A DNA stretch of 64,000 bases, taken from Catajapyx aquilonaris (Eukaryota). Below, piece after piece: positions 3,501-56,915 of this stretch; the first letter of the stretch is position 1; every line of letters starts with the position of its first letter. Both the position numbers and the translations under genes were made by a program. The notes under the pieces were generated by a model. That model did no database searches. It was not told the DNA's origin and saw nothing but the letters and a program-made list of their open reading frames with translations. Where the stretch lies: positions 1-64,000 of the forward strand of contig JYFJ02001520.1 in NCBI GenBank assembly GCA_000934665.2. The letters are read 5' to 3'.

Positions 3501-4451
3501 TTTAATATATTATGCGAATAAAATATACTAATTTCTCACAACAAACGTTCGATCCGGATCCTCGGATCCCGATGGGTACAAAGTGTCTCGGACCGGATCC
3601 GAAACCCGGACTATCCGGACCGGATCAGAAACTCGGACTATCCGGATAGTCCGAAAACCGGACTATCCGGACCGTCCGACACTATCCGGATAGTGCGGAT
3701 CTGGGAAGAGGGATCCGAAACAGGCTCGGATATCCGGATACCGGACAGTCCGGGAATCCGGATAGATGTTGAAGCACTAGTTTGGATTGCGTGTTATTGG
3801 CTGATTCGATTCCGTGCCATTGAACGTTCACGATAAAATATTTCTTTTTGTAAGGCTACTAGCTTGCTAGCTCTAGTTAAAAAATATGGACTTCCTGCCA
3901 CTTAACACTAGCAGATACGACTTTTTAAAAATAATAACCGAAAGTAACTTGAGATTATGTGATTTAAGTAGCTTATGCAACTAATTATGTAGCTTAAATA
4001 TCAAAATAAATTGCCAATATTATAACAGACATTTCAATAATTATTATTGAAGCCCTGTGTAGGTACTACATGTTTTACTGGGCAACAACTGCTGCTAATA
4101 ATCCGAAAATTCTGACACGTTATAATACACCTATGGAGTGCAACTGCGACTCCGAAGCTATACCTGGGCATATTCAACTCACGTCATATTCCCGAAGGTT
4201 GACTTGAGTTCCATTATTGTGTTTTGGGTTTCTTGCCCGTACTCTGAATGACCTAGGGTTTCTCACTCCCTGACCTCTTTCGAACGGCGCTAGGACCGAC
4301 TTGACTCGGGTCAGGGGAATGCTGTCCAAAAAAAAAAAGAATATGTCAGGCTTGATGACTTGAGTGATAACAAAGGGGCCTACTTGGTCAAGCAGAGGCT
4401 GCAGGAGACAAGCGATGTGACGATGGCCAAGAAACGGATGGATGTTATCAT
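509..4451 (-). CDS. Pepsin/cathepsin D-like (peptidase A1) aspartic protease, copy A, 5' part only (continues beyond left edge)
   Basis: Exons 4451-4384, 4321-4183, 855-714 and 648-509, all GT-AG and in frame. Signal peptide [20 protein letters not shown], a basic propeptide, then [31 protein letters not shown] (first catalytic DTGS motif) and GYLSSDNI. Exon structure matches copy B. Confidence 0.88.
1038..3779. mobile_element. Non-autonomous hAT-like DNA transposon (2742 bp) in intron 2 of protease copy A
   Basis: 8-bp target site duplication GTTTGGAT at 1030-1037 and 3780-3787. Termini TAGTGCTTC...GAAGCACTA. About 200 bp imperfect inverted subterminal arms packed with TCCGGA/ATCCGG motifs. 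The paralogous intron in copy B (~8670) lacks the insert. No transposase ORF recognised. Confidence 0.88.
2839..3203. repeat. Near-perfect long inverted repeat (~165 bp arms, ~33 nt loop) inside the hAT element; probable nested MITE
   Basis: ~2839-3003 (aataagcagtaaaactgccgaaa...tctgggaagaattaggcaga) is the reverse complement of ~3037-3203 (tctgcctaattcttcccaga...tttcggcagttttactgcttatt) with only a few mismatches. Confidence 0.85.
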
Positions 4452-6791
4452 GGTTTTGCTTCCCAAATGTTCCTTCGAACTTTTTAAATGCGGAACTGCT
4501 TCTCTCTCTCTCTCAACAATATCAGGGTGGAAAATATTGTCTGTTTGTTGTTTATAATCGGAGTTCTGGAGACAAGGGTGGCCATTGTCGTGAGTTTTGC
4601 TAATAGTGCATTTTGTGACAAAAGTATGAAACTCGATACGTCAGTTCTTTGGACACTTCTGAGGATATCTAGACGTGAAGACATGATGGCCGAGTCCGCC
4701 GGGGGTCTCTTTCGCAGAGTTACCATATCTACCAGGTAGGCCTACAGCATTCTTTAGGACGTTGTATTCGATTATACGTATGTCGGACCTGCGCCGGTTC
4801 GGGGTTCGAATTTAAGTTGGATGGGAATGCAGGTCAGGTGCGCATTAAAATAATTTAGATGCAAGGTACAGTTTAATAGCATTCTTTAATTATCTCTTTT
4901 TATTTTTTTGGTTATTAATTCAAGACATGGTTACTGCACTCTTCTGTACACGATCTACATGATAATTAATCACAGTTACAATTTCACAACTGATAACTTT
5001 AGACATTGAAATCACTCTCGTATCAACATGTTCCACTATTCGTCACATGATTCTAAATGCACTGATACACATTTCAAAACACACTTTCTCATTCTATGGT
5101 TACATAAAAGGAAAAACCTTTGCAATTGAAAATTTTCCAACAGGCTGGGCTTACCTATGACAGGTGGGTGTATGTTGTCAGCGTCTAGCTGTCTCTGTGG
5201 GGTCTGCTCTTTATTTTAAAATTCGACTTGTTTTAATAGGGTCTGATTTGGGGTGGGGTTGGGTTCATCTGAGCATCTTTTTGGTGATCTATAATCTTCC
5301 ATTATCTGGTTTCCCCCCAGCACTATAGACGTGTCCTCCTCGACCGAAGGGGCAAGGTGCTACTTACATTGATTCAAATCCGCAGTACGCATATGCCTTC
5401 GCTGGACCTGGCTCTAGTGGCCTTTTTTATTGCCTTTTGGCGCCAGCAAACCTGCCTCGTATTGAACTCTTGCTGCAATGCGTATTCTCACATGTCAAAA
5501 TAACTATGTAAAAATAATTACAATCACGGCAAAATGACTACAAGTGTGTCAAGTATGACCTGACTTGACAATAATTATCCTCCCTCAGCGGTAAAAATTT
5601 TCAATTCCCTTTTAACCTCTTCCACATAATGGTTAGCAACTTACACATAATGTACTCCCTTCATATAACAGTCCTCTAGTCACATAACATCACATAATAA
5701 ACAGTAATATAATTGTGGCGCATTGCACAATACAAACATGTGTAATAACAAATTAAAGTCCATCTCCAAATTCCTCAAGGGGTTAACCACTCGACTGTAG
5801 AGTGTACACTGTTGCTGGGTACTGCGTTGTCAACAAGCATAGGAGCTGACCCAGATAACATAGTAGAGCACTTTTTCTTTTCCTCTTCACTCCTCTCAGT
5901 TCTTACAGTTCCATATGTTTGCCCTGAAGAAGTTTAGAAATGTACGTAGAGATCCATGGTGGGAAATTTTCCCTGTCGTGATTTATTCGTGTCTGGAAGT
6001 CTACTTCCAAATCCCACAAATTCCCGGAATAACCATACGATACGAACTCACGTGAGATGTCCATCTTGAATGGTTAGCGTAATTGGCGGATGCGCCATGG
6101 TTTTGGCTGCGGGACTCACTCATAATATTTATTTCTGAGAGATCAATGATGGTGACAAAGACAATCCGGTTAGTGTACTCTCTCAACAATCCAAGAGTAG
6201 GCAGCAGTGATGTTGTTTATCGACATTTGCCCTGAACGTTGTCTTGATGAAACCAGCAGGTGTCCACCTCTCCACTTGTGGTTTGACAAAATGTTAACTT
6301 TGCACATTGTAATAGCGATATTCCGAAGCCACAACTCTTTTCTCATAGCTCATAGGACAGGACTTAATAATTCATGGTACGATCGATACTTTCACTTCAT
6401 TTACCAATATTATTTTTTAAATTAATCTAACGAATCTATTGATCTGTACATTTGCTGATCCTTCTGTAACTGAATTCTCATAAGGCCAGTGATTAGTGGC
6501 TCTAAGAGGTGAAACACAATCTACATAAAGTTAAATTCATGTACCGGCACTGTTTAATTTTGATTCCGAGCCCCCCCTCTCTCTCTCAATGAAAGGTTGC
6601 AATGATGACAAAAGTTGCAACTATACCACTACCAAATTTTAACTAACACCATGCCATCTCTCCATCCTGCTGATCGTCCCGTTCACGCAACATCCACGTG
6701 CATTCGCAGCCACGTGAATGCCACAACCAATAAGGCAGAGGTACACCATCTTCGGTCCTGGTTCCACGACAGATTCCCAATCGCCGCGTTC

Positions 6792-9038
6792 CTATATAGG
6801 CAAGTTCGTACGCGAGTTCGTAGGCTTGTTGCGGTGAGCAATCCCCACCTTGTTCTGGCCCATATCAAAAGCAACGTGGAATATGCGTAGGAACATGTTA
6901 CCAAAGATCCACAAGTCATCCTCCTCGTTTTCCGATGGCTTGAACGCGGAGAAACATTCGTCACGCCGCCGCCGGCGCGGTTCCTAAAAAAGGTCAGGCC
7001 ACTGTCACTCAATTTCATGCTATAAAATATTCCTTACCTGCCAGATGTATTCGCTTGCATTCATGGTGAAGCTGAAGTCGCCAAAGACGAACGTGACAAG
7101 CGGGAAGGAGTCCTTGATGTTGCAGTGCACTCGGTAGTTTCCTGATTCAGGCCAGGCTCCGATCCGGCCGTGAATGCCCTCCACAATGCTGGGTGGACCG
7201 AAGATGAGGTGCCTCCAGGTGACGAATCTGGCTCGGCAACCACGAATCTTGCAGTTTCGGTCGTAGTTGCCTATCTTCACGTCGTCCAAGAACACCTCCC
7301 AGTGCTTCATCTGACCTGTATTCGCATCCGGAGCCACATCCAACCAAGTCATAAGCTCTTGGAAGCCCACGCCGCCGACTCCTCCCAGTGTCAATGTAGC
7401 CATACCTCTGCTATTGTATTCAGAACTTTCCTGACCCCTGTCATGAAACGGTATCGTGTAATCAGAAATAGTTATTTTACGCAGAACTTGACACTAGAAC
7501 TAATAAAGTTTTTACTAAATATTTTGTTGCATATCTTAGGGTTTCAAAATATACGTGCCACAGTTCGAAAGAGAACACCGGTTCTCTCAACATCTTCCTC
7601 CCCACCAAGTCGAGAAAAACGGGTGTCTGGTAGGATGTGGAAAGAGACTTGTAGCCCAATCCCATCACGCCGTCTGCCCGAGAATCGAATTGCGGATCCG
7701 AAGTAATTTCAGTAAATGTTGTCCTCATCGAAAATCTCGACACCTGGAAATGCCACAACAGAGCAAACATGAGGGGGTAGAAACATTCGGATGCAAAGGT
7801 GCAAACCAGCACTTTCCTCCCATAAAATGGACGCCATCGTTTTGACTGATGTCACTGCAGTTGCAGTTCCGCTTAGAGGTATAATAAAAGAAAAATTCAT
7901 AACTGAAGAAGTACGAGTTATTATGAGGGAAGGTATGCGCCGATGGAAAGATCGGATTTGAATATTTTATGAAGTGCATTGGGATATAATATTGTACAGT
8001 TGATTCTATTATTCTTGCCTGTGAAACGCATTCAGTCAGCAAAGAAGAAGGACAAATCCACATGATTTTTAGCGAATATCCACGCACACGCAGGTTTTAA
8101 AAACACTAATCATTTTAATGGTGGGTTTGACATTGATTTGAGACTCTCCACGCATAAAGCACTCACTATGATCTTATCTGCGGACAGATATCCAGAAGCT
8201 GTCCCTCCTGCCGTTTCATCGTAGTTAATGCGCGTTTCGGTTTGAATGCAGGTCCTGGATACTGTGCCGTCGAATCGTCTTCTATCGTAATCACCTGAAG
8301 AGGATTAAAAATGCGAACACAGTGAAAGAAAACACTGGGTGAAATTATTATTATCATCCGCTCACGATGGCATGGTTCTCTCCTGGAATCAGCTGGACAG
8401 CGAGTGGAGTACACCCAGAGGTCTGCTGATCCTGTATCGAATATCACGTTGAAGATTTGCGGAGGGTCCCTTATTTCTATGGGCCCGATGAATTGTCCCT
8501 AAGGAGAAATTTTGACAGTTGTGGTTAAATTTGTTCCAAGTGATATCAGAAATACGGTAGTGGCTGTTCCAATCGAAATGCCATTATTCGTTACCAACTT
8601 TTTCTTATTTCAATTACTAGTTACTTTGTTATCGACTATTATCTGCTGTTAATATTAATGCCGAATTATCTGAGATGGGATTTCGTGTTATTGGCTGCTA
8701 ATAATCCGAACCTTCTGACACGTTATAATCCACCAGTGCAACTGAGGCCCCGAAGCTATACCTGGGTATATTCAACTCACATAATAATCCCGAATTTTGA
8801 CTTGTGTTCCATTGTGTTTTCCGTTTCTTGCCCGTACTCTGAATGACCTAGGGTTTCTCACTCCCTGACCTCTTTCGAACGGGACTACCGACTTGGCCAC
8901 GGGAATGCTGTCAAAACAAATTAGAATATTATGTCAGGCATGATGACTTGAGTGATAACAAGGAGCCTACTTGGTCAAGCAGAGGCTGCAGGAGACAAGC
9001 GATGTGACGATGACCAAGAAACGAATGAATGTTATCAT
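6792..9038 (-). CDS. Pepsin/cathepsin D-like aspartic protease homolog, copy B, ~410 aa, 7 exons, predicted catalytically inactive
   Basis: Exons 9038-8971, 8907-8781, 8498-8366, 8294-8167, 7743-~7555, ~7430-7038 and 6983-6792 (TAG); the exon 5/6 junction is ambiguous. Signal peptide [20 protein letters not shown]; motifs [41 protein letters not shown] and [25 protein letters not shown]. The second catalytic motif reads [15 protein letters not shown] instead of C.AIVDTGTSLI.GP. Confidence 0.9.
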
Positions 9039-10631: not shown

Positions 10632-13326
10632 ATGGCCAAGAAGAGATGTGCTGTCCTGCTGGAGCCGGCTCTTTTCCTCTTCATGCTGGCTTACGACATG
10701 AAGAAGAACGCTCTGATGGATCTCATCTACAGCAGGACGTGTCAAGGGTCGTTCACCGATCAGGTCTGCGCCAATCTGAAGGACGAAGGGAACCAGGAAG
10801 CGTTCGCTGAAGTGCAGGCCATGTCTAGCTTCTGGATATTCATGACTCAGGTCAGCATAATGGTGCAAATGTTAAAATAGTTGCCATTTTGACGTCGATA
10901 TCCGAGTTCCGCTTCTGGTTGAGCTGTCATAAATATTCAGCAAAGTATTTTAAAACTGGAACAAAGTGACACGCCATAATTATTTGCAATTATTGCAAAA
11001 ATATCAAATGCATTAGACAACCAATTGAATAAGATGTACTTTTGAAGCGCCAATATTTACAGCAAATTACGATATTCAGAGTGACATTATTATCGCTGTG
11101 ACCTGAACTTTTTACTCTTATTATAACCTATATAATATTTGCACTTGTGAGTGTCAAAGTGTCAAAGTGCATGGCTGGCAAAGTCGCATAAATATTGTGT
11201 CACTCCATGATAAATTAAGATATTGAAATGCAATATAAATATAGTTTTTTTTACTGAAACTGCATTCATCCCTATATACTGCCTAGTGACAGTGTGACTT
11301 TGCTGCCTGACGTACAGTCTATCAATGCGCTATCCCTAACTCTATAGATTCCTCTTATAATGTTACACACAACCTACTCAAATGATAATCACAAACTTAC
11401 CTTATCCGGCAGACAAAGGTTAGCGCTTGGGAATATTAGCACAAGAAAAGACATCCCACTTTTGGTAAAGCAATGTACAAAGTGCACAGTAAACATGGTT
11501 TTCTCCCGATACCGTCAATATATTGAATGAAAAAAATGATAATAAATTATTGAATAATAAGAAATGCATGACTCAGTCATATTTTCCTCTGATTTCAGGT
11601 GTTTCTAGGTGTACCTGGCCTGTTCACTTGCTTATACATGGGCAGTTGGAGTGACCACACGAATCGGAAGCTTCCACTGATAGTGTCCTCTTTGGGCGAG
11701 ATCTTCTCAACACTCCTCCTGGTCCTTCTGGCCAACACAAACAACGCTTCTCTGTGGGTTGCGGCCATATCCTGCGGTGTGTCAGGCCTAGGAGGCAACT
11801 TCATAGTGACCATTTACGGAATAGTCAGCTACATGACGGACATCAGCTCGGAGGAGAGTCGGACTATCCGGATGTCTATCCTGGAAGGGATGGCAGGTGC
11901 AGGGGCTATCGTGGGACCCATGGCCAGTGCGGTGGTCATCGAAATGACAGGTCACAAGTATGTGTACCTAGTGGTGCTGGGTCTGTTCGTGACCCAGTTC
12001 ATATACGTCATTTACGCTGTCCAGAGCAGGAAGCCGGAATGCCCTGTGGTCAAGTACGGAGAGGAAGGATGCTGCTCGGACCTTCTCAGACCTTTCAGGG
12101 ACATGTGGCAGACACTGACCAAGGAGAGAGAAGGAAGGGGAAGGACATACATTGCCCTAGACGCCTTCATCTTCATGTCGGCCATCATCGCTTCATTTGG
12201 TACGCAGCTAATTACGTATAGATAATGCCAGAATATTTCTGGCCACTCGCACAAAAATTAGCAAACTGCAGCCTCCCAGGCTCGTGCACAGTGACATAAC
12301 TTCATCCTTCTGAAGGTCAAGTCCTTCCCTCTTTTTTAGAGTTTCCAACACTTCAGACATGTCGACTCCCCCAGAAGTGTCTGCTGTCTGATTAGTGATA
12401 AACCTTATCTAATAATGACCGCGTTCTGACTCACTCTGTAACAACAACCGTTTTTCGATTGCAGGTTACTTTGACATATTGTATCTTTTTGTAAAAGACG
12501 AGCCTCTTGAATGGAGCTACACGACATACAGCACGTTCGTTAGCATCATTTTCGTCGGAAGGACCACTGGTGCTCTCATCTTGTTCCCTCTATTTCGACG
12601 GATCACAGGAGCATCTGATCCCACAGTGATTGCTGTCGGAATATTCTTCAAGATGCTGAGCATGATCATGCTCGGATTCACCACAAACGTTGCCATCGGA
12701 TTTGCAGGTACGATATATAGTATGACCTTTGAATCGGTTTGATCCGGAACACGGAAGATGATCAAGGTTATGTGTAATCAGCTAAGCGATACGTGTTATC
12801 ATGCCAATGATTGTTGCAAAAAAGACAGGGGATGTTGACCTCATGATTTAATTATTCACTTTCATTTCAGTTGCAGCAACGAATGGATTCTTTTCGTTCA
12901 TAATGGCTGGATGCAAGTCCCTTCTGTCCAAGCTGGTCCAACAGGACGAGAGAGGTAAAATATTCTCCGTGTTGGCCTCCCTGGACAACATTGCAGTTCT
13001 GGTCGCCTCTCTAATATTCAACACATTATATCCTCTGACAAGGGCCATTTTCAACGGACTGCTTTTCGAGTGCATGGCAGTCATGTTGGTCCCATCGTTT
13101 ATTATCGCATGGTAAGCAGGCAGAATTTCATGCCATTACACTTCTTGCGGTTAATTATTTTTAAACAGTGCACAATTTAATCGGGCATGAAAATTTTCAT
13201 TGCAGTGGGATGAGCGTGTTGCACAAACCAAGGCAATACACCGAAGAAGTGAACGAGTTCCATCCGCTTCTGAAATCGACCAGCAGCAGTCAAAAAATTG
13301 GCCAAGTGCACGAGACTGACCTTTGA
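10632..13326 (+). CDS. SLC46-family (PCFT/SLC46A3-like) MFS transporter, 5 coding exons
   Basis: Exons 10632-10850, 11599-12199, 12465-12707, 12871-13111 and 13206-13326 (TGA), GT-AG and in frame. N-terminal LEPALFL with a paired-Cys lumenal loop and EVQ..S.W; MFS motifs GSWSDHTNRKLPLI, SYMTDISSEESRTIRM, LYLFVKDEPLEWS and KSLLSKLVQQDERGKIFS. AATAAA at 13525-13530. Confidence 0.9.
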
Positions 13327-14622
13327 CAAAGGGCTGAGAAGCCTTTATTATTTGTTATATTTATTCGCCCATTATATTGCTCATGAGATATTTTTACTTT
13401 CATGTTTTTGTTCTTATGCAAACTATCACTCAATGAGTGAGTAGTTTATATCTCTAATGAAGTCTTTTCTCAGGTTTTGTAACATGTTCGTCCGTGTAAT
13501 ATAATAATTATGTCATTGTGTGTTAATAAAAAAATGGCAAAACATGCTGATATCATCATAGAGGACTTTTTGTGATAACCGCCTTTATTAATCAGCGAAT
13601 GATTTATGTGTGTGGAAAAATTAATATTAATAACATGTGCATTGGCACTGACGAAATTGAATCAAAATCTAATGAAAACACGAATCAAAACCTTGTCACT
13701 ATCATGCGTTTAATTTTTTATTCCCTTCTTGATGAATCGTAATTTTTTATTACATGATAATGAAATCTAATATTTGTGAACGTTTGTTTGTTTGTTGTTA
13801 GAATGCAAATCAATATGAAGGGATAATTATATAGAAATTTTCAAGGAGATTCACTAGGGGTACTGTAACATTTGATGGGGTAGGTCATGGTCACATTGAA
13901 TTTGACCTCTGATGTCATAGGGTCGCCAGACGAATACTTTAATACCAGTCAACGCCGAGTATTTTGTTGCATTTATTTTATTTTCTTCTTATTTTATTGA
14001 GAAATGTTTGTTTGTTTGTGTTTTTATTTACACAAGCATCTGGTATAGGGTATAAAATGAGTCACTTTTGATGCTGTACAGCTGTAAAAAATATATGAAA
14101 AGGGCGGGGTTATTGATAAAGTAAGGCCTTTCAGATAGACCCACTGCGACATTAATTCATACAAACATTCTGATGCACTTGGTTTTTATCCGCCTGCAAC
14201 ACCGGACTGGACACATACTCACGACACATTGTTCGCAACGTATTGCATAATCATTTCTGTAGGGAAACAGACCGTGTCAGATTCTCACAATAAACGTCAC
14301 CTTGCAGGAATAGGACAACAAACTTGGCACTTTAGCGCGACGTAGGCCGAAACCTCTTTCCATCACTCTTGTCAGGAATATGCTGGACAATCTTTAATCT
14401 TGTCCTGCCCACACCAAAATAACAACCTGATCCTGGGGAAGCGCCCCTGGGAAACTCGAATGGTGGTCATCCTCCTTGCGCACTTCCCTTAACCACAATT
14501 AAGCCGAATCCTACACAAACCTCATTACCTGTCAGTCAAACCGGATTAATCATTCTCCCCGAATTAACCTTATTGTGTCAATCTGGAAACCAGTGGGGGT
14601 TATCCAGTCCGGATTGAAGTAG

Positions 14623-14630
14623 TATAAGAA
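14623..14630 (+). promoter_or_regulatory. Putative TATA box of the pyrokinin gene
   Basis: TATAAGAA about 63 nt upstream of the ATG at 14686, with a CAGT initiator-like sequence about 30 nt downstream. Confidence 0.5.
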
Positions 14631-14685
14631 CCCTGGGCATGGGAGTGAGAAGAAGCAGTGCAAGAGCAGAAGGACATTAGCTGAC

Positions 14686-15728
14686 ATGGAGGTACTTCAC
14701 GTCCTCATTTCACTCGCGATGGTGATGGCCTTCACTGGATCAGAAGGTAAGTTGTCTTATTCTACTGTTCAATTACACCTGACTGATTTCAGTAACATGT
14801 AACAATGTTTCTTCATAAAGGACTTTACGTGATGAAAAAATCCAGCCCATCCCAGCACTCAGCAACAATGGTTCTGATACCAGCAACTCAAGAGGAAGAT
14901 TCTGGACTGTTGGTTCGGAAGAGACGGTCTCCAGAATACGCCCAAGACGAAAACGACAACATACGTCGTTTGGATCCAGCCGACTTGGCCGAGCTTCTCA
15001 AAGACACACCCTGGGCTCTCATCGCCATCAAAGGTTAGAATTATTAAATCATAGGCCCTATAATATTATAAGTTACAGAATTCACAATCCGTGACTCAAG
15101 CATGTAAACAAGTTGACTCATCACCTATAAGTAGAAGTGACCGTAACTTTAACTTTCCCAGTTCAACAATATATTAGAGGACAGTAGTGTAGCGCCCTGG
15201 TGGATTTTGTCCGTGAAGTGACTCATCACCAACGTGCAGGTAGTACTACTTGTCCTGTGAGAGCGGCAGCCTATACGTACGCCAACTGGTAGTGGCATAG
15301 CGTACTACGTCCAAGTGGGGGGGAGGAGTGTTGCCAAAATTTGGCAACGGGTTCGCTACTAGTTTAATTTAATTTAAAAAAAATGGGATCTGAATTTTGC
15401 ATTTCCAGACTACAACACTCAGAAGAGAGGTGGTGGCAACTCGTTATCCACAAACTTCGTACCACGTTTGGGTCGTAGTTACCATCAGTTCTCTCCTCGT
15501 CTGGGCCGCTCCGATGTCCAGTTTGAAGAGGAAGAGGACAACGAGGAGTGGGACGGGTCCACCACTTTTGTCCCCAGGTTGGGTCGGGCGTCCAGAGGAA
15601 GCGGAGGGTCCAACAATAACAACAACAACAAGGAGGACGGAAGAGGAAACTCGCAGCAGGACATTTCAGCCACCACCAAATTCTCGCCAAGACTCGGACG
15701 TGGAGGATTCTCACCGCGTTTGGGGTGA
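14686..15728 (+). CDS. pk: Pyrokinin (FXPRLamide, PK/PBAN-type) neuropeptide precursor, 3 exons
   Basis: Exons 14686-14746 (signal peptide MEVLHVLISLAMVMAFTGSEG), ~14821-15033 (acceptor uncertain; an in-frame alternative lies near 14862) and 15409-15728 (TGA). Five FXPRL-G peptides flanked by basic sites or the C-terminus: GGGNSLSTNFVPRLa, SYHQFSPRLa, SDVQFEEEEDNEEWDGSTTFVPRLa, ...GNSQQDISATTKFSPRLa and GGFSPRLa. ATTAAA at 15809-15814. Confidence 0.93.
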
Positions 15729-17016
15729 TTTGATTGACTTTTGATTTTAAAGGCCAACATGCCTTTTTTTAGCTTGTTCGCATTTTTATTGTAAAGATTG
15801 TAAGGAAAATTAAAGTGTTACCAATGCCAAAAACGGCATATTGATATTTCTTTGAATACGCCTAGTACTAATAGTCCATAATGTGATATTGTTTAGTCTA
15901 AAACAACAAGGCCCATAGAAAGTATAAAAGTCAATTAACACACAAAAAAATTATCAGTACACTATACTATTTGCTACACTTATTTTCTGCACAATAATGC
16001 TATTTTTAAGTCCAGATTAATTTTCCCTTCAAGTTATTAATTGACCGACTAAGCTCCGATTTTAGCAATCCGAGTGTATAAAAACGATGCGATTATTCCT
16101 GTTATTAATCGGTTGATAATTATTCTAAACAATAAGTAATAGCAAAAAAAACCTACAAGAACTGCGATCCAGTAATTTTAACAGTTTGAAACAGACGTTT
16201 TTTAAATATAGCTTAATTTGTATTTTTAATGGTTCACTGCTAGTGATATTATGACAATAATTTAAGAAAATTTTCACACAAACCAAAGAAATTAATGTGT
16301 ATTTTAAATTTTGATTAAGGTTTCTACTTTTCAGTGGTTTACTCTCAATAACGTTATGACTTTTTAAAGAAAATATTACTTCACACGTCGGATTCAGTAA
16401 TTGAATCCTTTAATACCCCAAAAAAAATCCTCCCAAAAAGAAACGGATCCAATTTGAAGTGCAGAAAGGGGGGGCGAAACCCCACTCAAAGTGATTAGCC
16501 CTCCCCGATAATTAAATCGCAACAATTAACCCCTTTGACTCTGCCAGTTTCCAAAGAGGGATGAAGAAGTCTGCAGCTTAGAAATCACGTCTCGACCTTC
16601 TCTCTCCCCCACCCCCATCCCCCTCCCCTCTCATCTTGCTCTCTAAAAATACAATCGACTTGCGATCCTTTAATTTTCAACCCCCGCCCACCTTTGCGAA
16701 TTTGTTCTCCGAGCTGGCAATATAAAAGGCTCCAGTAGGGAGGCAATATGGTGTCCTAATCGCGGACTTTCCGCATGGATTAGGGTGCTCCCCAGGACCA
16801 CGTCGCCGTTTCCTAGGCTTCCAAACAGCAGGGTTTCATTTTGGAGACTTAGCTCCTTCTATTCCTCTCTTCTTTTTTTTCTCCTCTTTTACCTTTTTTT
16901 TTCTTCAGCTCTAAACCCCCCCCTTCCCTCCTTGCCACCCACTCCTTTCTCCCCTTGAAACTGGACAAGAGACACCACGCAAACCTGCTCTGCAGGGGGT
17001 CAGCTCCAGGCAGGGG

Positions 17017-17023
17017 TATATAA
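17017..17023 (+). promoter_or_regulatory. Putative TATA box of the capa gene
   Basis: TATATAA in G/C-rich flanks about 130 nt upstream of the ATG at 17150, with an initiator-like TCAC/TTCA about 30 nt downstream. Confidence 0.55.
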
Positions 17024-17149
17024 GGTCCAGCCCCAAGGCGATGAATTTTCACTCCACAAACTGCATCCAGGTGTGAGCTGATACTGCAACACCACCACAT
17101 AACTAAAAAATATCCGATATTTTTTTTCTGTTTTGAAAAATCGAAGAGA

Positions 17150-18790
17150 ATGGGGTTTGTCAGAGGAGCACTTTTCTTCGCGCTTTTGGTCGCCGTTTCC
17201 AACTGCTGTGACGGTAAGGTATTTTTATTGCATTCTTAGGAATCAGCATGTTTAAGATGATTCCCGTTTTTTGGGGGGAATCACACCTATAACCGCGGAC
17301 TCAGAGGCCTGTTTCCAATAACAACAAAATGTTTCACACAAGCATTTTTTGCATGCGTGTAAGTCGATATTGGCTTTTCGCATAATATCCTATAGTTTGA
17401 AGGGGGAGTTTGAAAAAAATGCCAATTTTCATATTCCGAGGATAAAATGTGCAATTTCGTGCTCGTAATAGGTGAAACCAAGAGAATCCAGAAACGACAG
17501 TCAATAATCCCATACCCGAGGGTCGGAAGAAGCCAGTGGTACATGGAGGATAAAAGAGGCGCTCCAGGTCTCATCCCATTTCCACGAGTAGGGAGGTCAC
17601 ACCTAGATGAAGATGGTGACCTACCTTTTATTGCCTTTATTTGAAGAAAAAAATGCGACAATACTGATACAACTGTCCTTTCAGTGTTTCACGAGATGAA
17701 GAGACAGCTGATTCCTTTCCCAAGGGTGGGCAAGAGGCAGAACACGATTATTCCTTTCCCTCGTGTGGGACGATCCTCAGCAGCCAGCACCCTGTACCTC
17801 GTTCCTCTTGAAGAAGAAGAGGGCCTCTGGGAGACGGACGTGGACAACGACGATGATTCCCAGCAGAAGAGGAACGGGGCAGGTGCCACCGGACCAGGAG
17901 GAATGTGGTTCGGACCTCGTCTTGGACGGAAGAAGAGGTCTGTGGACTACGACGATCATAAGTCTGACGTCGTCCAGATACTCAAGGACACTCCATGGGC
18001 CGTCATTTCCATGAAAGGTATGTGACTCGATCACTTGCATACAATGTCAATGACGAAATTTTCAGCTTCATTGCAAATAAATCTCACTGTCAGATTGAAG
18101 ACTATTCAGAAGAATCACTTGCGGATATTAAGTTTATTACCAGTTTAATTGAATTAGGTTCAATTCTATGTGAAAACAGAACAAAATATATAGAGTGTCG
18201 GTTTACGTTTGTGTTGAAAAATCATCTAAAATTTTTAGCTAAATATTACTTTCATTGTCTTGGAGCTTCAGCAAGTTACACATTTTCAGGATAGAAAATG
18301 AGATCGCCCATGATTTCTAACAAAATTTATCTTAATTACAGTTTGCCGGTTTGATTACACTGCAAACTATTAATTGACCTAATGTGAAGGGATTAAGTCC
18401 AAATATTTCAAACACAATATGTTATAGGAATCAGCTTAATATACAGTATTTAATCGCTTAATGATTTTCAATTTAGAAAATTTTTAGGCAGAAATGCCTT
18501 GATTTTTATATTAATATTTCAAAACGTATTTTGTTGTTTAGATATTTTCTTTAAACAATATTGAGCTCAAGCCACTAGTCCCAATTTTCAAGCCAAAATA
18601 TGTCCCATTTTATCCACCTGTTATTAGTAATTTTGTGTATTTTTTCACAGGTCACAACCCAGAGGAGATGGTCGAAGGTCATTCAGTCCACAACGAGGAC
18701 TCCGAGGACTGGCCAGCGGCATCGGAAGTCGGACACTTCCCGTCCACGATAGGCGAAGTTCCTTTCGTCGCCAAGTCAAAGCATCACTAA
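17150..18790 (+). CDS. capa: CAPA (periviscerokinin + tryptopyrokinin) neuropeptide precursor, 4 exons
   Basis: Exons 17150-17213 (signal peptide MGFVRGALFFALLVAVSNCCDG), 17472-17615, 17685-18017 and 18651-18790 (TAA), all with phase-1 GT-AG introns. Peptides: QSIIPYPRVa, GAPGLIPFPRVa, QLIPFPRVa, QNTIIPFPRVa and NGAGATGPGGMWFGPRLa, each with KR before and G-R/K after. AATAAA at 18953-18958. Confidence 0.95.
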
Positions 18791-19081
18791 CAATGTACAC
18801 TACCTAGAACTGTAGTCGTGAACATGTGTCGTCCGAACAATGGTGGAGCAATCATCCTTGTTCGATTGTTTAAAAAAAAGAGAAGTCACAGGAGCAGATG
18901 TGAAAAGTAATAACTGACGGTGATAATGTATGTGTTTATGTGTAACAATAATAATAAAAAGGCGACAACTTTTACACATGCAGTTTTGTTGGTCACCTAC
19001 TTCACAGGATAAGCAAGATGGGGAGAAGACTTTCTGGCTTGCTTTCTGGCTCTCAGTGTAAGAATTTCTCCCGTTGAATTT

Positions 19082-19105
19082 ATCATCATCATCATCATCA
19101 TCATC
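19082..19105. repeat. (ATC)n microsatellite
   Basis: About 8 tandem ATC units. Confidence 0.9.
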
Positions 19106-42756: not shown

Positions 42757-43230
42757 TTAATAGTACACAGTGCATAAATAGTTCACAGAGAGTACACGGA
42801 AAGTACACAGATAGTACACAGAGAGTACACGGAAAGTACACAGATAGTACACAGAGAGTACACGGAAAGTACACAGATAGTACACAGAGAGTACATAAAT
42901 AGTAGGACACAGAGAGTACATAAATAGTAGTACACAGAAAGTACAGTACATAAATTGTAGTACACAGATAGCACCGGTACATAAATAGTTCAAAGAGAGT
43001 AACTTACATATAATTATAGTACTGTTCATAAACAGCTCACAGAGTATAATTATAATATATTAAATAATCAAAGTACATAAGTAGTATGTAGATAGTACAC
43101 AGTGCATAAATGGTACGTAGATAGTACACAGTGCATAAATGGTACGTAGATAGTACACAGTGCATAAATGGTACGTAGATAGTACACAGTACATAAAATA
43201 GTGCGTAGATACATAGATAACGTAGTACAT
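42757..43230. repeat. Compound AGTACAC-based minisatellite (33-bp and 29-bp units)
   Basis: About 3 copies of agtacacggaaagtacacagatagtacacagag from 42791 and about 4 copies of gtagatagtacacagtgcataaatggtac from ~43088, with degenerate copies around them. Confidence 0.9.
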
Positions 43231-46588: not shown

Positions 46589-46758
46589 CGATTCGTATTG
46601 ATTCGTATAGAATCGTAGAATTCGTATAGATTCGTATAGAATCGTAGAATTCGTATTGATTCGTATAGAATCGTAGAATTCGTATAGATTCGTATAGAAT
46701 CGTAGAATTCGTATAGATTCGTATAGAATCGTAGAATTCGTATCGATTCGTAGAGAAT
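46589..46758. repeat. 29-bp tandem minisatellite (ATTCGTA-based)
   Basis: About 5.5 copies of attcgta(t/a)(t/a)gattcgtatagaatcgtaga. Confidence 0.92.
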
Positions 46759-56574: not shown

Positions 56575-56915
56575 TATATAACGTGATGAACCTATAGCCT
56601 AACCTAGGCTCAATCTAACCATAACTAATCTATCCTAATCTAACCTAATCTAACCTAATCTAACCTAATCTAACCTATTCTAACCTTACATAACAGTTTA
56701 TATCATTTTCAGTGTGTGATTCCCTCGTTAATATATTATTTATTATTATATATATTACGATTATACATCGTGATGAACCTGCAGCCTAACCTAGCCTTAA
56801 CCTAACCTAACCTAATCTAACCTAACCTAACCTAACCTAACCTAACCTAACCTAACCTAATCTAACCTAACCGTTTAGATCATTTTCAGTGTGTGATTTC
56901 CACGCTAATATATTT
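56575..56915. repeat. Two tandem ~190-bp units, each containing a (CCTAA/TCTAA)n telomere-like tract
   Basis: cgtgatgaacct..agcctaacctag, a (CCTAA/TCTAA)n tract and tcattttcagtgtgtgatt..c.cg.taatatatt occur twice (from ~56581 and ~56768). CCTAA is the complement of the arthropod telomeric repeat TTAGG. Confidence 0.85.

Follow-up and report, generated by a model that had tools for sequence, protein, structure and literature searches.

The 64-kb window described here (positions 1 to 64,000 of contig JYFJ02001520.1, the whole stretch of DNA that was analyzed) carries two neighboring genes for precursors of PRXamide neuropeptides, pk and capa. The two genes are co-oriented and lie head to tail, with 1,421 bp from the pk stop codon (15728) to the capa ATG (17150). 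The upstream gene, pk, consists of three exons with an open frame of 594 nt (197 codons) and encodes pyrokinins (PKs); the downstream gene, capa, consists of four exons with an open frame of 681 nt (226 codons) and encodes periviscerokinins (PVKs) together with one tryptopyrokinin. In explicit gene models all five introns, two in pk and three in capa, are bounded by GT..AG and interrupt the frame in phase 1.

Transcript evidence was drawn from one public run, X1, in the form of Logan contigs; the library type of this run is unrecorded, and it contains 30% of the sampled words. Contigs from X1 were compared with positions 14400-19100 of the window. A 723-nt contig spans pk (14665-14743/14818-15031/15407-15836) and an 890-nt contig spans capa (17120-17212/17471-17614/17684-18015/18649-18969), each with 0 mismatches. 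After correction for the stated cut offsets (for example, pk 14743>14818, cut +3), their five joints coincide exactly with the modelled splice sites. X1 thus yields two separate spliced contigs, each holding one complete open reading frame (ORF) with its own ATG and its own stop. No X1 contig lies over 15837-17119 or links a pk exon to a capa exon, an absence that is no evidence either way. The two genes are built up as follows.

14623..14628 (+): TATAAG, a TATA-like sequence 58 nt upstream of the pk ATG with a putative promoter role; the pk contig begins at 14665
14686..14746 (+): pk exon 1, 61 nt, start codon and hydrophobic putative signal peptide, ending in phase 1 (X1 joint)
14821..15033 (+): pk exon 2, spacer, RKRRS site and LKDTPWALIAIK module (gene model and X1 joints)
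15409..15728 (+): pk exon 3, five pyrokinins and the stop codon (motif scan and gene model)
15809..15814 (+): ATTAAA, putative polyadenylation-type signal of pk; the pk contig ends at 15836
17017..17023 (+): TATATAA, putative TATA box upstream of capa; the capa contig begins at 17120
17150..17213 (+): capa exon 1, 64 nt, start codon and putative signal peptide, ending in phase 1 (gene model and X1 contig)
17472..17615 (+): capa exon 2, two periviscerokinins, QSIIPYPRV-G and GAPGLIPFPRV-G (motif scan, gene model and X1 contig)
17685..18017 (+): capa exon 3, periviscerokinins QLIPFPRV-G and QNTIIPFPRV-G, tryptopyrokinin ...GGMWFGPRL-G, RKKRS and the LKDTPWAVISMK module (motif scan, gene model and X1 contig)
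18651..18790 (+): capa exon 4, 45 codons without a PRX-Gly peptide, then the stop codon (gene model and X1 contig)
18953..18958 (+): AATAAA, putative polyadenylation signal of capa; the capa contig ends at 18969

The poly(A)-type signals of the two genes lie 11-22 nt before the respective contig ends. The N-terminus of capa (MGFVRGALFFALLVAVSN..) is hydrophobic, as judged by reading of the gene model. A C/T-rich low-complexity tract occupies intergenic positions 16580-16950, just upstream of the capa TATA box, and a second TATAAAA lies at 16721.

A six-frame scan of the window for P-[RK]-x-G returned 14 matches, 10 of which are the peptides of pk and capa. The other four, at 6191 and 55904 (+) and at 56608 and 16765 (-), are without peptide context, and the scan revealed no further convincing PRX-Gly unit in the 64 kb. 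The pyrokinins of pk are NFVPRL-G, QFSPRL-G, TFVPRL-G, KFSPRL-G and GFSPRL-G, with their F-x-PRL-G sites at 15462, 15495, 15573, 15687 and 15714; a basic residue stands behind each unit, except that in the last the Gly is followed by the stop codon. Residues 50-105 of pk exon 3 match the Pfam family PBAN (PF05874) with 30.8 bits against a cut-off of 22.7 (E=3.4e-7). The DH/PK1 tryptopyrokinin that typically precedes the PKs in this family is absent from pk, an absence known elsewhere and thus no bar to membership; the six-frame scan likewise found neither a PVK nor WFGPRL in pk.

The four PVKs of capa conform to P-[YF]-PRV-Gly (IPYPRVGR, IPFPRVGR, IPFPRVGKR and IPFPRVGR), each with KR ahead of it and with PRVG sites at 17516, 17582, 17720 and 17759. 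The single tryptopyrokinin follows the PVKs as MWFGPRLG at 17915, in the context KR-NGAGATGPGGMWFGPRLG-RKKR, and has the MWFGPRL-Gly consensus quoted in PMC4237046. Pfam gives no match for capa exons 2 and 3, the PVK family model being very short, nor for capa exon 4.

These results agree with the original prediction of two co-oriented PRXamide genes about 1.4 kb apart, each opening on what it had read as a signal-peptide exon, which ends in phase 1. The motif scan likewise bears out the peptide inventory that it had proposed, namely five FXPRL-amides in the last exon of pk with no PVK or WFGPRL-amide, and four PVKs plus a WFGPRL-amide in capa with no FXPRL-amide in its last exon.

The exon common to pk and capa

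Closer examination of the two precursors shows that pk exon 2 is a homologue of the 3' two-thirds of capa exon 3. BLASTP aligns them with 16/41 identities (E=7e-8), and their semi-global alignment scores 85 against 14.9 +/- 6.1 for shuffled sequences, a value reached by 0/2000 shuffles; for the stretch behind RK[KR]RS taken by itself, 0/2000 shuffles reach the observed score. The pk exon is without an amidated peptide and ends ...RKRRS...LKDTPWALIAIK|G in phase 1, and capa exon 3 ends ...LKDTPWAVISMK|G in the same phase. The earlier claim of an internal exon common to both genes, closing at the same phase-1 position and alignable over its LKDTPW segment, is sustained by these values.

The alignment is interrupted by a single long in-frame gap in pk, about 31 residues in length, that corresponds to the capa spacer and KR-NGAGATGPGGMWFGPR, the position of the tryptopyrokinin. 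Across this gap pk reads directly from ...EEDSGL to LVRKRRS. Given that the gap is clean, in frame and located at the tryptopyrokinin position, we infer that an in-frame deletion, rather than point decay, removed the tryptopyrokinin from pk. Over the 12 codons of the module, 9 residues are identical between pk and capa, and 5 of those 9 are written with different codons.

The 'RK[KR]RS...LKDTPWA' module is not confined to this locus; other arthropods have it in precursors of the capa type, of the pk type and of the undivided PVK+PK type. A search with capa exon 3 among 1.84 billion representative proteins recovered 103 relatives at E<=1e-3. In a word-indexed search at the same threshold, 15 of the 30 proteins listed are named, all of them from insects, and 11 of these 15 are CAPA or cardioacceleratory peptide 2b. 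Capa exon 2 resembles the two-PVK exon of the three-ligand proteins P0014 and P0016 (local BLASTP E about 2e-10 to 3e-10). In pairwise comparisons pk exon 2 comes closest to P0086 and P0060; in a comparison with longer proteins, 0/33 candidates scored. The core pattern of the module matches 33/118 retrieved relatives, with capa-type copies reading tPK-RKKRS...LKILHNFNWAIVPIKG in the closest group (tPK, tryptopyrokinin) and ..APWALVALK in Carabus, and a pk-type copy reading, for example, ...MELLKDTPWALLPLRGGKR in P0060. The Diptera and Halyomorpha relatives of capa show no module by this pattern.

Two PVK+PK precursors, P0067 and P0100, lack a tryptopyrokinin and yet possess the module; they read FTPRLGRRKRS and FNPRLGREKRS, followed by ..LEDTPWAIL and ..LRRTPWAIV, respectively. 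From these sequences the module seems older than the tryptopyrokinin, which would occupy the position held by an ordinary PK in P0067 and P0100. The module is probably a non-ligand domain of the precursor under purifying selection; a role for it in sorting or processing is speculation.

A scan of metagenomes for related loci returned 27. In three of these (L001, L003 and L004) an undivided three-ligand gene lies on one strand, its exons ordered as leader, 2-PVK exon, PVK + tryptopyrokinin + module exon, and then two PK exons. Of 15 module copies compared, 13 from metagenome loci and two from the window, 14 have a G|GT donor directly behind them at the same phase-1 position. The sole exception is L005 (1-1059), a metagenome contig of the undivided gene type in which all PVK and tryptopyrokinin motifs and the module share one frame within about 540 bp; this frame stops two codons past the module (..VKGKA stop), with GGC in place of the genomic GT donor. 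L005 looks like a cDNA and may represent a short PVK/tryptopyrokinin-only transcript form such as Derst 2016 reports for Collembola. L002 carries PVK and tryptopyrokinin exons with no PK unit within 2.4 kb behind the module, and may be another capa-only gene or a gene with its PK exons further away. At L011 (1264-2500), from the same metagenome as undivided genes, two tryptopyrokinins are followed by the module (..EGPWTIVSLKG with a phase-1 donor) and two NFTPRLG pyrokinins, with no PVK in the 1.2 kb upstream, a content that marks it as a pk-type or tryptopyrokinin-type paralogue. In two pk loci of pterygote type, L008 (11 kb) and L023 (10 kb), the few kb of flanking sequence contain no PVK exon, but this span is far too short to judge linkage.

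Origin of the two genes

We consider it very probable that pk and capa are two separate head-to-tail genes that arose when a three-ligand capa/pk gene was duplicated in tandem long ago. This ancestor would have comprised a signal-peptide exon, a PVK exon, a further exon combining PVK, tryptopyrokinin and the 'RK[KR]RS...L[KE]D[TA]PWA...[KR]' module, and one or more PK exons. The upstream copy, pk, would then have lost its PVK exons, and its tryptopyrokinin by in-frame deletion, but retained its pyrokinins and the exon with the module; capa, the downstream copy, would have kept PVKs, tryptopyrokinin and module and ended with a peptide-free last exon. Paralogy and reciprocal loss are well supported because the exons are homologous, the intron after the module has the same position and phase in 14/15 copies, undivided genes exist in relatives, pk carries the gap, and the two genes give separate spliced contigs. 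On the same evidence the original interpretation of a duplicated capa/pk gene with complementary ligands stands; its further suggestion of independence from the insect event is not established, the tree being weak and the approximately unbiased (AU) tests rejecting nothing.

By analogy with insects, each precursor would enter the secretory pathway through its signal peptide and be cleaved at the monobasic and dibasic sites on either side of each peptide, after which the C-terminal Gly would be converted to an amide. From capa one would expect four PVK-amides and one WFGPRL-amide, and from pk five FXPRL-amides. In insects such peptides act on three distinct PRXamide G protein-coupled receptors; if the same holds here, two promoters could therefore allow cell-specific release, which we offer as a proposal.

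Several points weigh against this reconstruction. The similarity of the two exons ahead of RK[KR]RS (S..T..L.P..EE..GL) is modest, with 4/2000 shuffles reaching it. Capa exon 4 and pk exon 3 do not resemble each other significantly; the best local match between them, EDNEEW/EDSEDW, scores 31, a value reached by 350/5000 shuffles, or by 769/5000 under softer gap penalties. The PKs of capa may have been lost either by decay in place or by exon replacement. A blastn comparison of the pk and capa gene regions gives nothing at E<=0.01, which leaves no DNA-level similarity by which to date the duplication; since the module nevertheless has the same residues written with different codons, this lack of a match argues for an old duplication in which the module was kept by protein-level selection. 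Processing, amidation and receptor specificity are all carried over from insects. Finally, transcript support comes from the single run X1 of unrecorded library type, and contigs cannot reveal where transcripts start or end, nor any rare isoforms; a pk-capa chimera formed by read-through would keep its frame because all introns are in phase 1.

This last property bears on a very unlikely alternative, that the pk and capa exons form one transcription unit from which alternative promoters, splicing or polyadenylation produce PK-only and PVK/tryptopyrokinin-only mRNAs. Such a gene would resemble the single capa/pk gene of Collembola, for which two splice forms are reported (Derst 2016, PMC4770511), and it would accord with the common orientation and the 1.4-kb spacing of pk and capa as well as with the five phase-1 introns, which allow any exon combination to stay in frame. 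Against it, each contig has its own ATG, putative signal peptide, stop and poly(A)-type signal near its end, TATA-type boxes precede both genes, and the module exon is present twice, a repetition for which alternative splicing has no need. We regard it as extremely improbable that one copy is a decaying, non-functional duplicate, for which pk, with its deleted tryptopyrokinin and lost PVK exons, would be the most plausible candidate. Its exon 2 is indeed without an amidated peptide and carries a deletion relative to capa; however, the pk frame is open over three exons, the five F-x-PRL-Gly sites have a basic residue or the stop behind them, X1 contains a correctly spliced pk contig, and the module is conserved as protein despite saturated synonymous change. 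PK-only pk genes are, moreover, the normal state in several hexapod groups (PMC4770511, PMC10755894).

A lineage-specific duplication, independent of the pterygote capa/pk event as Derst 2016 infers for Diplura, is a tentative reading to which we lend somewhat less than even credence. The ligand split in the window is that of pattern C1 (capa with PVK and tryptopyrokinin, pk with PK only), which was found in all dipluran species studied and is regarded there as a separate duplication (PMC4770511), and a 2023 review records the tryptopyrokinin as missing from pk in 4 Diplura (PMC10755894). The RKKRS site and long LKDTPW spacer of the window capa resemble those of pk-type and undivided precursors, unlike those of named pterygote capa, and its exon layout and exon 3 are closest to undivided, probably collembolan-type genes. 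The same review, however, reports pk without tryptopyrokinin in all 35 Odonata examined and in Heteroptera, so that the pattern is not diagnostic of Diplura.

The tree proposed in the original prediction for the common LKDTPW exon was built by maximum likelihood from 32 rows and 52 of 65 columns; P0093 and P0096, in which no cleavage site was found, and the tryptopyrokinin-only gene P0066 were left out. Well-supported inner branches number 3/29, and 19 are open. The window pk groups with the pk-type row P0086 (support 85/95) and not with the window capa, although it sits on a long branch, and the groups were defined only once the tree had been seen. Constraining the window pk and capa to be sisters costs 7.8 log-likelihood units (lnL) and is not rejected by the AU test (p=0.21), as might suit an independent event; placing the window pk with all pk-type rows, including the fragments P0046 and P0072, costs 2.15 lnL (p=0.38), and placing the window capa with pterygote-like capa rows costs 2.33 lnL (p=0.37). 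A tree of 52 columns with 3/29 branches supported, on which the AU tests reject nothing, therefore cannot decide for or against independence.

A broader proposal, which we consider rather doubtful, is that the host is a non-pterygote hexapod such as a dipluran, that its split is independent of the insect one, and that the module is an undescribed, constrained non-ligand domain common to arthropod capa/pk precursors. If the split is independent, the locus would provide the first genomic view of that event, a tandem duplication with the copies still head to tail and with ligands lost in place through the tryptopyrokinin deletion in pk and the loss of PVK exons.

The remainder of the window

A eukaryotic aspartyl protease is represented by at least three exons at 7020-8498 (-), upstream of pk and on the strand opposite to it (Pfam Asp, PF00026, E 1e-8 to 5e-10). 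A 210-codon exon of an MFS transporter follows at 11593-12225 (+) (MFS_1, E=5.5e-16), and the Atlas clusters closest to it are of arthropod MFS and proton-coupled folate transporter types. A comparison of this exon with longer proteins gave no relative at E<=1e-10, a threshold that was too strict. Pfam has no match for 31 other long ORFs of the window. In the 20-64 kb stretch 27 long ORFs are without a Pfam match, and this stretch looks gene-poor. Rfam and tRNA scans of the 64 kb found nothing.

Short arrays with a 25-27-bp unit occupy 1124-1213 and 3589-3679, about 2.4 kb apart. Their consensus units are reverse complements of each other (26/27 bases after rotation), like the subterminal inverted repeats of transposons; the ORF at 2483-2815 between them has no Pfam match. 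Minisatellites with periods of 11, 25, 29 and 33 bp and up to 98% match lie at 42778-43211 and 46591-46758, and the long ORFs over them are repeat artefacts. An interstitial (CCTAA)n array of 17.4 copies (90% match) is found at 56785-56872, and also at 56599-56686, adjoined by 10- and 15-bp CTAA-rich arrays. Read on the other strand, its unit is TTAGG, the telomere repeat usual in arthropods.

Comparison with known capa and pk genes

Duplication of a multi-ligand neuropeptide gene with subsequent sorting of its ligands has a textbook example in capa/pk, and in the searchable literature the evidence for this rests on transcripts. Duplication of a three-ligand gene followed by the sorting of PVK, tryptopyrokinin and PK is in print (PMC4770511, PMC9853942, PMC10755894), and Derst 2016 describes it for Zygentoma and Pterygota as well as for Diplura; the tryptopyrokinin itself is known only from Hexapoda or Remipedia (PMC4770511, PMC4237046). 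Its presence in the window capa suggests a host from one of these two groups, most likely a hexapod, and we give a dipluran host about even odds. The original prediction is thus anticipated in its ligand split and duplication scenario. The linkage that it described has fared differently, since no statement on the chromosomal linkage of pk and capa was found in the searchable literature, including PMC9853942, PMC11874938, PMC4237046 and PMC10755894, of which figures and most supplements lay outside the search. Within the same limits on figures and supplements, no text gives the module or the window peptide strings in a neuropeptide context; the only peptide strings matched in the literature are QFSPRL, which two locust papers contain, and IIPFPRV, from a paper on cockroach CAPA.

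Undivided genes (pattern B/B1 of Derst 2016; here L001, L003, L004 and P0014) have the same exon order as the window capa up to the module. The exon behind their 2-PVK exon starts ..HE.KRQLIPFPRVGKR and ends with tryptopyrokinin, RKKRS, module and phase-1 donor, as in the window capa, and their PK array places NF[TV]PRLG first and two close FSPRLG copies last, as in the window pk. In the undivided genes, however, the PK exons follow 350-630 bp behind the module exon within one gene, whereas in the window the PK exon is part of another gene further upstream, which has a putative signal peptide and a module copy of its own. The text of the module differs as well, HNFNWAIVPIK in undivided genes against LKDTPWA.I..K in the window.

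Pterygote pk/pban genes (termite-gut-metagenome L008, P0060 and P0086) are built like the window pk, with the same succession of signal peptide, spacer, basic site, acidic spacer, module, phase-1 intron and PKs, and the window pk shares with them the Pfam PBAN match. Their sites read RREKRS with LKDTPWAL in P0060 and RRDRRS with LKDAPWAL in P0086. In contrast to the window pk, which has a gap at that place, these genes keep a tryptopyrokinin (DH/PK1) ahead of the module. Pterygote capa genes (Anabrus simplex, Carabus violaceus, Halyomorpha halys, Polyplax serrata and Diptera) encode PVKs followed by one WFGPRL-Gly, as does the window capa; in those of Anabrus, Carabus and Polyplax a PW[AT]L motif remains from the module. 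They have two PVKs in place of the four of the window capa, and a site R[LR][QN]KR with a spacer of 5-8 residues before the PW motif in place of RKKRS and a long LKDTPW spacer.

The locus presents no new kind of gene or mechanism and adds detail to a known story. It fits tandem duplication followed by complementary loss, a scenario that is already known from transcripts; the novelty lies in the head-to-tail linkage and the intragenic relics. To that scenario it contributes gene structure in the form of adjacent co-oriented paralogues, a common exon with the same phase-1 boundary, and the tryptopyrokinin deletion. Linkage, intron position and module are markers that can be scored in named genomes to count splits, and the value of the locus would rise if its host were a non-pterygote hexapod and its linkage comparable across such genomes. 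The closest described counterpart is pattern C1 of the Diplura (PMC4770511). The window capa, with PVKs and a tryptopyrokinin and no PK, and the window pk, with PKs only, have the ligand content that defines this pattern, and the same reading as a duplication applies to both; the likeness is to the published description. The dipluran work, in its searchable text, draws on transcriptomes only, without gene order, distance, intron positions or relics, and these are what the locus in the window supplies.

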